Below, one piece after another: positions 36,474 to 38,145 of a stretch of DNA of 64,000 bases. The notes under the pieces are model-generated. The model was not told the origin of the DNA, ran no database searches, and saw only the letters and a program-made list of their open reading frames with translations. Every line of letters begins with the position of its first letter. Position 1 is the stretch's first letter. The position numbers were made by a program, and so were the translations under genes. This DNA comes from a phage: sequence record PV467748.1. One strand, written 5' to 3'.

Positions 36474-36510
36474 TTTTATTCTCCAGTTTGTTTTCGTATT
36501 ATTTGGTACA
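36474..36510 (-). repeat. conserved promoter-proximal leader cassette, copy 1
   Basis: Near-identical to 36881-36917 (ttattctccagtttgttttcgtattatttggtaca). Confidence 0.7.
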
Positions 36511-36515
36511 GCTCT

Positions 36516-36545
36516 ATAATAACACAACCTGTACCAAAGTAAAAC
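36516..36545 (-). promoter_or_regulatory. early-type promoter with -10 inside the inverted repeat GGTACAG/CTGTACC
   Basis: Reverse complement GTTTTAC ... TATTAT; followed by the shared leader. Confidence 0.4.
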
Positions 36546-36547
36546 AT

Positions 36548-36880
36548 TTATTTCACAACATTCCAATTTTTCATATCAAGTTTACCAACTTTTTTCATCT
36601 GAGCAATCAGACGTTCAGCGCGTGTACGGGCATTAACGTAATAGAATTCACCAATTTTGTTTTCTTCAATACGACCAGTAATTACAGTTTTCAGTTCATA
36701 AATCCAACCTGTAAAGAAGTTGTGAAGCTCGATGGTAAATGTGAAATCAGTACCCATACCTTCAGTTGTTTCAACTTCGATGATATCACCTTCAACTGCA
36801 GTCAGGACCCACATGGTTTCTTGATATCCACCGTTGAAACATTTAGCTTTAACAGATGCATTCAGATTTACAGTTTTCAT
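36548..36880 (-). CDS. hypothetical protein
   Basis: 110 aa; leader identical to that of the 36108-36473 gene. Confidence 0.5.
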   Translation of the reverse strand: MKTVNLNASVKAKCFNGGYQETMWVLTAVEGDIIEVETTEGMGTDFTFTIELHNFFTGWIYELKTVITGRIEENKIGEFYYVNARTRAERLIAQMKKVGKLDMKNWNVVK

Positions 36881-36917
36881 TTTATTCTCCAGTTTGTTTT
36901 CGTATTATTTGGTACAT
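36881..36917 (-). repeat. conserved promoter-proximal leader cassette, copy 2
   Basis: Near-identical to 36474-36510. Confidence 0.7.
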
Positions 36918-36921
36918 GTCT

Positions 36922-36950
36922 ATAGTATCATGCCTACCGGAGATGTACAC
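36922..36950 (-). promoter_or_regulatory. early-type promoter (GTGTAC, 17-nt spacer, TACTAT)
   Basis: Directly downstream of a - strand terminator. Confidence 0.45.
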
Positions 36951-36978
36951 CTTTTTTTTAAGATTTAGAAACAAAAAT

Positions 36979-36996
36979 GGGACTCCGAAGAGTCCC
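36979..36996 (-). terminator. intrinsic terminator
   Basis: GGGACTC-CGAA-GAGTCCC followed by ATTTTTGTTTCT on the - strand. Confidence 0.65.
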
Positions 36997-37001
36997 ATAA
37001 C

Positions 37002-37163
37002 TTATGCCTGAGGCTTACCAAAGCAAGCAGCATCTGCACGCAATACTGCACGAGCACGAGCTTGAAGCTTATCAACTACCTGATTGATACGCTTGTTGGA
37101 CGCACGCTTGTAACCAGCGCGTTTAGAGGTACCGTCAACTACTTTAACTTCTTTCTTAGCCAT
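37002..37163 (-). CDS. small basic protein (53 aa), below the ORF-track cutoff
   Basis: Hand translation MAKKEVKVVDGTSKRAGYKRASNKRINQVVDKLQARARAVLRADAACFGKPQA; followed by a terminator. Confidence 0.4.
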   Translation of the reverse strand: MAKKEVKVVDGTSKRAGYKRASNKRINQVVDKLQARARAVLRADAACFGKPQA

Positions 37164-37319
37164 TTTTAAATCTCTTAAATTAGGATGCAGGACTTATTGG
37201 CGTTGCCTGCGCAAGCCCTCAAGGGGAACATAGGTTTTGGATATTTAACGACAGGATAACCATAAACCTCGTCATCATACCAACCACGACTTAGACAGAT
37301 AACCTTTTTCTGACGCGTG

Positions 37320-37348
37320 ATAGTACAAAATACATTCAAGAGGTACAC
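37320..37348 (-). promoter_or_regulatory. early-type promoter (GTGTAC, 17-nt spacer, TACTAT) with a long leader
   Basis: Reverse complement GTGTACCTCTTGAATGTATTTTGTACTAT; about 150 nt upstream of the 37163 start. Confidence 0.4.
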
Positions 37349-37426
37349 CGTAAAACTGTTGGGGTCTTAAAACTATAATGATTCGCAAATCATTAATCAA
37401 ACAGTTCGACGGCTCCTCGATTTAAT

Positions 37427-37675
37427 TTACTTCAGGGTAATAATAAAATGACGTACTGCTTTACGAGCTGCTGAAGCCAAAGGCTTAGCAAATTTCAGTT
37501 CATCTTTAGCTTCCAGTTCAGCAGCCAGAGTAGCCTGAGCAGGATTCAGATGTTTGAAATAACGCAGGATTTCCAGTGCTTCGGCTTCGACATCAATAGA
37601 TGCGCCGTAGTTTTCGTGACCGTTGTTCCAAGCGTTGCGTTGCAGTTCAAGAGCGTGATTCAATTGTTTGTTCAT
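37427..37675 (-). CDS. rIII: rIII lysis-inhibition accessory protein
   Basis: 82 aa; same length and position as T4 rIII, adjacent to gene 31. Confidence 0.8.
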   Translation of the reverse strand: MNKQLNHALELQRNAWNNGHENYGASIDVEAEALEILRYFKHLNPAQATLAAELEAKDELKFAKPLASAARKAVRHFIITLK

Positions 37676-37821: not shown

Positions 37822-38145
37822 TCACTTATAAAGACACGGAATAGCTTTATAGTGACAGGTAACGAATTTCTGTTTAATTTCTTTAGGTTGCTTAATACCG
37901 AGCGCAACTAAAGGATGAGGCACGTTAGCAATCTTACCAACAGGAAGTGGAGTCAAATCACCTACTTCACAAAAACCTTCAGGGACATCAGGTCCTACAG
38001 AATAAATTTCACAAAGTTCGGGGATTTCACCTTGATGAAGCTTGCCAATAACGATACCAGATGCAGTAGTTTCTTCATCGCCAGCTTGTTTTGGTTCGGA
38101 AACGAGAATAACATATTCTCCGACCGCTTTAATAGGAAGTTCCAT
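37822..38145 (-). CDS. 31: co-chaperonin (GroES-like) for capsid folding
   Basis: 107 aa; near-identical C-terminal half to T4 gp31 ([24 protein letters not shown]...[17 protein letters not shown]). Confidence 0.92.

Follow-up and report, generated by a model that had tools for sequence, protein, structure and literature searches.

A predicted chain of conserved RNA modules in the rIII-30.9 spacer of a Dhakavirus phage, with copies in other phage groups

The present analysis provides comparative evidence that the gap between the genes rIII and 30.9 of a T4-like phage of the genus Dhakavirus (sequence record PV467748.1; the whole stretch of 64,000 nucleotides (nt) analysed is called the window) very probably encodes a functional structured RNA on the strand of the genes. 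The gap is a spacer of 263 base pairs (bp) at 37164-37426; this feature and all others located below in the window lie on the minus strand. Phage vB_EcoM-E33 is 99.3% identical to the region over the 751 bases compared. An earlier note on this DNA had described such a gap and had proposed for it either autoregulation by the small basic protein encoded downstream or an RNA element. The gap is present as described, and the RNA element is strongly supported by covariation across relatives, which also revealed a 90-nt module and an H-type pseudoknot that the note had not seen. Judged from the aligned relatives, the spacer is a chain of RNA modules predicted to fold independently of each other, designated A, M, PK (the pseudoknot), H2 and H3. 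The support for this structure is comparative and not thermodynamic, module A excepted, and the fold energy of the whole spacer is unremarkable (z -0.5).

Module A (37332-37421) is an extended four-helix hairpin of 90 nt, defined by the RNAalifold consensus fold together with covariation. Its helices are GAGG/CCUC, GCCGU/ACGGU, GAACUGUU/AACAGUUU and the apical stem AAUGAUU-UGCG-AAUCAUU, and its unpaired bases are very highly conserved, the internal loops keeping CUGAUUA, UAUAGUUUUAAGACCCC and GUGUAC. Across four phage groups, represented by 12 distinct sequences, 98% of the alignment cells are paired and 13 of the 27 pairs change on both sides, a covariation reached by none of 500 shuffles; slid controls gave at most three double-sided pairs. 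The consensus structure is also the minimum-energy fold (minimum free energy -23.9 kcal/mol, z -3.26), and the covariance model of module A (R1; 115.7 bits) found a single copy in the 64-kb window.

Module M (37280-37331) is small and varies among phages: its hairpin reads CACG..CAGA-loop-UCUG..CGUG in the window, and the stem CAGA/UCUG becomes CAGC/GCUG or CAGGC/GCUUG in relatives; the fold of M taken alone is not significant (z -0.7). T4 has lost this module, other phages carry a 137-nt module in its place, and in some genera it follows PK.

PK (37226-37279), defined on a hand alignment and a MAFFT alignment, is a classical H-type pseudoknot. Stem 1, of 9-10 bp, joins 37267-37276 to 37247-37255, and in stem 2 of the window the loop GGUU (37258-37261) pairs with AACC (37233-37236) across the A-rich linker AAAUAUCCAA (37237-37246). 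The linker is 10-11 nt long and two to four loop bases stay unpaired, while stem 2 reads CAAGGUU/AACCUUG, GAAAGUU/AACUUUC, UUGUGAG/CUCACAA or UAGUAGUU/AACUACUA elsewhere. The hand alignment, guided by structure, covers 31 distinct sequences; 84% of its cells pair, and half of the pairs (9 of 18) change on both sides. The MAFFT alignment, which is partly out of register, still gave 78.6% paired cells versus 30-48% in slid controls and 55 double-sided cells versus 9-25, with 0 of 500 shuffles reaching its covariation. The covariance model of PK (R2; 71.9 bits) again found one copy in the window.

Two hairpins defined by covariation complete the chain. H2 (37216-37226), CCCCTTGAGGG in the DNA and CCCCUUGAGGG as RNA, is followed by a conserved CUUGCG; its outer C-G pair is G-C in the related locus L065. 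H3 (37187-37210), GCAGG...CCUGC with the conserved loop CAAYGYCAAUAAGU, has CUGG/CCAG, GAGAG/CUCUC, GGGAGC/GCUCCC or GGCGA/UCGCC as its stem in other genera, and a conserved alternative inner helix, GGC-AAY-GYC, can also be drawn. Both hairpins had been pointed out from the window by the earlier note, and both covary. Conserved G-U pairs, two of them invariant in module A and a G-U and a U-G in PK stem 1 in 20-24 of 32 sequences, would be A-C mismatches on the opposite strand; therefore, the strand of the RNA is that of the genes. The spacer matched only itself when compared with the window by blastn.

As judged by identity, the spacer RNA modules are better conserved than the adjacent genes, and their conservation lies far beyond what chance would be expected to leave. 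Module A is 97.8% and the stretch from PK to H3 95.8% identical to T4, compared with 84% for rIII, 78% for gp31 and 68% for 30.9, and 776 phage records match the spacer sequence alone. Two near-invariant blocks of the spacer are shared by Dhakavirus, Mosigvirus and Tequatrovirus. The gap measures 244-263 nt, and in the reference phage T4 its counterpart, 130,541-130,784, is annotated as empty. It is among the most conserved segments of the region, with pairing that is kept across about a dozen genera.

Three 1-nt insertions or deletions are located inside the otherwise invariant blocks, and a segment of about 50 nt is deleted in T4 and swapped for a 137-nt insert in other phages. The spacer is therefore noncoding. 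The earlier statement that the gap has no open reading frame (ORF) above about 20 codons was correct for ATG starts and failed for GTG and TTG starts, with which the gene strand carries ORFs of 57 amino acids (aa; 37175-37348) and 41 aa (37275-37400). These ORFs would speak for a protein-coding gene in the gap, decayed or unannotated, as would the short coding sequences placed in it in the records of R5505, G3F9 and phage 132; some records annotate ORFs of 34-62 aa there. However, neither ORF matches a PHROG family, both are broken in relatives by the 1-nt changes and the deletion, the frame, length and presence of ORFs vary among relatives, and the substitutions track base pairing rather than codons. 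A conserved reading frame was excluded by the 1-nt changes, the deletion or replacement and the lack of a PHROG match, and a coding origin of the gap is hardly credible.

A gap of 120-416 nt separates rIII from 30.9 in every Tevenvirinae genus sampled, including Tequatro-, Mosig-, Dhaka-, Gelderland-, Mosuguk-, Karam- and Kanagawavirus as well as Klebsiella, Edwardsiella and other enterobacterial T4-like phages. PK is present in every Tevenvirinae spacer examined, and PK, H2 and H3 occur together in about 45 of about 45 spacers from about a dozen genera, with an order of modules that differs among genera, H2 preceding PK in some. Among T4-like phages, module A occurs only in T-even-like genera, and STML-198 has it truncated. 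Between PK and the AUG of 30.9 there are about 63 nt in the window and, elsewhere, from about 60 to more than 300 nt, with modules inserted between. In the non-T-even genera, a covarying hairpin, UCUCC-loop-GGAAGA, pairs the Shine-Dalgarno sequence of 30.9 just after H3 (related loci L023-L028 and L038-L065), and its form in L065 is compensated to CACCUC-loop-GAGGAU; the window and T4 have no hairpin sequestering this sequence. We think that PK, H2 and H3 are the ancestral core in T4-like phages, and that coliphage families have exchanged module A as an accessory domain.

The 137-nt module, GCGGCAAGUGCAUGC...GUGUGCAACAGAUAAGAGC, is absent from the window and stands at varying positions in other rIII-30.9 spacers (phage LZ9, L066:587-723; also L007, L023-L025 and L027). 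It is single-copy in 404 phage records, with 80-100% identity across genera in nearly all of them, and contains several covarying helices including a GNRA-capped hairpin; Rfam gave no match to it. Strings of 12-14 nt are shared with rnpB of E. coli, but local alignment was no better than with shuffles, and an origin as a fragment of RNase P RNA was rejected. A short module, GGUGAUUCGCUACCUUAGUGCGGCUAG, with a 4-bp stem and a 5-nt loop, is likewise absent from the window; it precedes A in T4, where it comes right behind the rIII stop codon, and in Mosigvirus, and follows PK in Klebsiella, Proteus and Citrobacter phages (L005:575-605, L004, which is T4, L023, L026 and L028).

Copies of the modules were also found outside the T4-like phages, always oriented like the neighbouring genes, that is, on the transcribed strand. 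In PsgM04F, phiWec188 and phiWec190 (about 150 kb), A and M lie between tRNA-Gln and tRNA-Pro at 75-85% identity with compensatory changes. In muut (Stephanstirmvirinae), the whole cassette is inserted between tRNA-Gly and tRNA-Gln as a circular permutation of the T4-type sequence, ending exactly at the ATG of 30.9, with a flanking 13-bp direct repeat, TTTATTGGAGATT. The rV5-like phage LTH01 carries a diverged A and PK adjoining a tRNA-like sequence, tRNA-Met and a homologue of the T4 stable RNA rnaD; this copy shows new compensatory pairs, such as GGGG/CCCC for GAGG/CCUC, and no homologue of gp30.9 or rIII was found anywhere in its 141-kb genome. In 28 Kuravirus records, module A occurs alone ahead of the terminase gene, preceded by a stop codon and followed by an intrinsic terminator, and its helices are fully compensated; phiEco32 has no module A. 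Both transfers that contain PK end at the ribosome-binding site or start codon of 30.9, leaving the ORF behind. Since the spacer had no match in 5,426 E. coli genomes, a host or prophage origin was rejected. Most matches of a pattern scan of IMG/VR were chance, as judged with model R1.

Two of these loci contain further elements. In muut, the ribosome-binding site and ATG of 30.9 run in frame into the final 27 codons of rIII, so that an ORF of 28 codons results (L068:2713-2799). In LTH01, the tRNA-like sequence has a T arm and an acceptor stem of 7 bp; it is unannotated and was not called by ARAGORN, and the clear rnaD homologue is also unannotated; the two lie at L069:1563-1646 and L069:1745-1855.

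Our preferred reading, which we hold tentatively, is that the spacer may be a portable and autonomous structured RNA acting independently of gp30.9. It is favoured because A and PK are portable, occur without gp30.9, are placed among tRNAs and stable RNAs, and stand at variable spacing from the start codon. The RNA would be transcribed within the rIII-to-30.9 message, since no terminator separates both genes (the scan found no terminator-like site in the interval), and in the window phage possibly also from an internal early-type promoter. It would then function in, or be excised from, any transcript carrying the modules, would be recognised by a conserved enterobacterial host or phage factor, and may be long-lived, either as a stable small RNA or as a domain resistant to nucleases, as are rnaC and rnaD (species 1 and 2) in the tRNA cluster of T4. 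The spacer shares with these two the character of a conserved structured phage RNA, and its A and PK homologues lie inside tRNA clusters of other myoviruses, in LTH01 beside the rnaD homologue. In contrast, the T4-like cassette lies between two protein genes outside the tRNA cluster, and the location of the homologues is suggestive only as a sign of processing to a stable small RNA.

With somewhat less confidence, a wider reading can be considered, in which A, the PK core and, in many relatives, the 137-nt module belong to an undescribed set of autonomous RNAs. Virulent enterobacterial phages of at least four unrelated groups, namely T4-like, phAPEC8-like, rV5-like and phiEco32-like, would have exchanged these RNAs. 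As RNA, they would act on some conserved target in the host or its defences, or else they would be a new processing ribozyme, and in that case T4 would carry an unannotated functional RNA. The spacer RNA looks like an undescribed phage RNA family. Rfam 15 gave no match to it at E up to 10 in a 2.5-kb region or in slices of 281 and 181 nt, and in ten related loci nothing apart from tRNAs appeared at E up to 1. No description of it was found in the literature searched on the rIII-30.9 region, gp30.9 and small RNAs of T4; a 2003 paper in Biologija reportedly deals with rIII and 30.9 expression. If functional, the spacer would represent a new structured RNA family in phage biology and a concrete handle on gp30.9, and one would have to ask what leads such different coliphages to take up the same domains, often in tRNA clusters, with RNA processing, stability and the countering of RNA-acting host systems as candidate answers.

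Several observations weigh against autonomy. In every T4-like genus sampled, 30.9 is immediately preceded by PK, H2 and H3, the Shine-Dalgarno-sequestering hairpin follows them in the non-T-even genera, and such an arrangement suits a cis-regulatory leader. Recent recombination could account for the copies in other families, which would then be carried neutrally: the muut copy is nearly identical to the T4-type sequence, and T4-like donors that were not sampled may be the source of the compensatory differences of LTH01 and Kuravirus. The muut cassette still drives an ORF through the transplanted ribosome-binding site and ATG. In addition, blastn of the spacer against the tRNA region of T4 gave chance words only, without sequence similarity to rnaC or rnaD. 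Because the core is always upstream of 30.9 and the Shine-Dalgarno hairpin is found in other genera, a leader with autoregulation remains a serious rival. In this explanation, which we consider rather unlikely, the spacer would be a cis-acting 5' leader specific to 30.9, with PK, H2 and H3 forming an operator, most simply for gp30.9 itself, that acts on translation or mRNA stability, and with module A as an unrelated addition. Autogenous control of this kind is known from the pseudoknot leader of T4 gene 32 and from the leaders of ribosomal proteins S15, L20 and S4, and gp30.9 is a small and basic protein with a predicted long helix and a basic tail.

The gene 32 leader is the closest precedent, being likewise an H-type pseudoknot in an untranslated region of the T4 family, ahead of a gene whose small protein product is of a nucleic-acid-binding-like kind. 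There, an unstructured A/U-rich tract runs from the pseudoknot into the ribosome-binding site. The spacer PK, in contrast, is followed by two or more hairpins and by 60 to more than 300 nt before the AUG, so that it does not adjoin the ribosome-binding site at a fixed distance as an autogenous operator would; it also occurs without its gene and has no sequence similarity to the gene 32 leader. The candidate operator and the gene are always together in Tevenvirinae, whereas LTH01 has A and PK without gp30.9. Moreover, H2 stands ahead of PK in some genera, the window and T4 lack the sequestering hairpin, and gp30.9 has no Pfam or PDB relatives, leaving its RNA binding putative. The autoregulation suggested in the earlier note is thus neither supported nor excluded, and is weakened by the variable distance to the AUG, the reordering of modules and the occurrence of A and PK without 30.9.

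One or more modules might alternatively be RNA-processing elements, either an undescribed self-cleaving ribozyme or a dedicated recognition structure for a ribonuclease, cutting polycistronic transcripts between rIII and 30.9 and in tRNA precursors. Hammerhead, twister and hepatitis delta virus-like ribozymes cut transcripts in other phages. The patchy, portable spread over transcribed intergenic sites and tRNA clusters of unrelated phages and the very highly conserved unpaired bases are consistent with such a role. As in the pistol ribozyme (RF02679), the hairpin loop of PK pairs with a downstream strand across an A-rich linker, a P1-type element being recognisable, and a near-identical string, CCACGUUAAAUA, presumably stands at the 3' side of the first stem in both. 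Nevertheless, we consider this explanation improbable, as no Rfam ribozyme model matched the slices, and the CUGAUUA of module A, although hammerhead-like, lacks G8 of the hammerhead core, with no GAAA following the apical stem; a hammerhead was rejected by inspection and by the absence of an Rfam match. Pistol ribozymes are associated with phages, as the spacer modules are, and in them the 5' strands of P2 and P3 enclose the strand that forms the pseudoknot, with a strict 2-nt P3-P2 junction on the 3' side, usually GU, as the cleavage site (PMC4604425). PK recalls the front half of this ribozyme and differs in having a stem 1 of 9-10 bp rather than about 5, no P2 enclosing the pseudoknot strand and no 2-nt junction, neither of which can be drawn. 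Membership was rejected on these grounds: the Rfam pistol model gave no match, the linker contains no sequence able to pair with the bases that follow H2, and H2 is not downstream of PK in several genera.

A riboswitch, in which PK, H2 and H3 would form an aptamer sensing a small molecule and controlling 30.9, appears very improbable. The H-type pseudoknot with its A-rich linker and conserved junction bases recalls aptamers, those of preQ1, SAM-II and guanidine-III riboswitches being H-type pseudoknots, and the alternative inner helix of H3 would suit a switch. However, no Rfam riboswitch matched, the gene to be regulated encodes a tiny basic protein without a metabolic link, the ribosome-binding site stands at a varying distance, and PK also occurs in tRNA clusters without a downstream gene. 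Neither an aptamer match nor a ligand-related gene was found of the kind that accompanies preQ1, SAM-II/V and guanidine-III riboswitches.

It is also conceivable that the spacer is conserved for signals in the DNA, namely promoters or a recombination cassette like the promoter-early stem-loops (PeSLs), which shuffle genes in T4-type genomes (PMC2839356, PMC4122927). Two promoter-like sites are located within the conserved blocks. The early-type site reported in the earlier note, GTGTAC (37343-37348)-17-TACTAT (37320-37325), runs from the 3' edge of module A into the beginning of module M. Identical hexamers with the same spacing occur at 36916-36944, upstream of 30.8, and for this reason an internal promoter is plausible in the window phage; yet the site is not conserved, as its -10 hexamer is deleted in T4 and phage 132 and its spacer is 11 nt in R5505. 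The second site, a sigma-70-like TTGATT-17-TATAGT from the promoter scan, lies inside module A (37372-37400), where its hexamers coincide with conserved unpaired bases in all four phage groups and its spacer with the apical hairpin; the first hexamer is CTGATT in most relatives. The rearrangement of the region between phages, including the circularly permuted muut copy with its flanking direct repeats, is also in line with a cassette, and PeSLs resemble the spacer in being intergenic, modular and tied to rearrangements in a hyperplastic region, with a PeSL-like 51-nt repeat just downstream of the spacer.

Against such DNA-level signals, compensatory changes, including G-U intermediates, keep helices whose two halves flank and include the promoter-like sites, and signals in duplex DNA need none. 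Promoter-like sites are no commoner in the region than in shuffled sequence (4 versus 4.9 expected). Whereas PeSLs are short repeated units of promoter and stem-loop, A and PK are single-copy in 64 kb, much longer and constrained by RNA base pairing, and T4 keeps the modules without the -10 hexamer. We therefore regard DNA signals as quite improbable, less so than a riboswitch and more so than a processing element. The 5' halves of the module A helices start a few bases past the rIII stop codon, upstream of the early-type site; together with the lack of conservation of this promoter, this suggests that the conserved RNA would also be made by read-through from rIII.

Concerning the surrounding locus, the minus-strand order is cd, 31.2, 31.1, gp31 (37822-38145), rIII (37427-37675), the gap, 30.9 (37002-37163), a terminator and 30.8 (36548-36880). 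The upstream cistron rIII encodes 82 aa (phrog_1457, E 5e-43). The 53-aa lysine/arginine-rich ORF proposed in the earlier note is a real gene, matching phrog_1427 (E 4e-27) and named gp30.9 in phage E33, with homologues in 980 phage records (tblastn) and a motif, G(T/D)SKRAGYKR.SN.R.N, that is invariant or nearly so in ten aligned homologues. Sequence searches of Pfam and PDB gave no relatives. Lysine and arginine make up 14 of its 53 residues (isoelectric point 10.8), and a single-sequence AlphaFold model predicts one long helix at residues 12-47 (predicted local distance difference test score, pLDDT, 77) and a basic tail. A Shine-Dalgarno-like AAGAGA (37171-37176) lies 7 nt 5' of the start codon. 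The terminator expected after 30.9 was located by the terminator scan at 36977-36998, with the stem-loop AUGGGACUC-UUCG-GAGUCCCAU and a U tract, and its stem covaries among relatives. ARAGORN found no tRNA or transfer-messenger RNA cloverleaf anywhere in the window.

Just downstream, a 51-nt direct repeat, 92% identical between 36474-36524 and 36880-36930, precedes 30.8 and the next gene. It is PeSL-like and comprises a 5' untranslated region, a ribosome-binding site and part of a promoter-like sequence, the second GTGTAC-17-TACTAT site overlapping the copy at 36880 and beginning just upstream of it. Finally, some deposited genomes, MK524178, OR352946 and MN994497 among them, have the spacer or gp30.9 annotated as short hypothetical proteins or as a '1,4-alpha-glucan branching enzyme, GH-13-type'. 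These annotations are almost certainly artefacts, and they give a practical warning that several genome records carry spurious ORFs, even a 'glycogen branching enzyme', over the spacer RNA.

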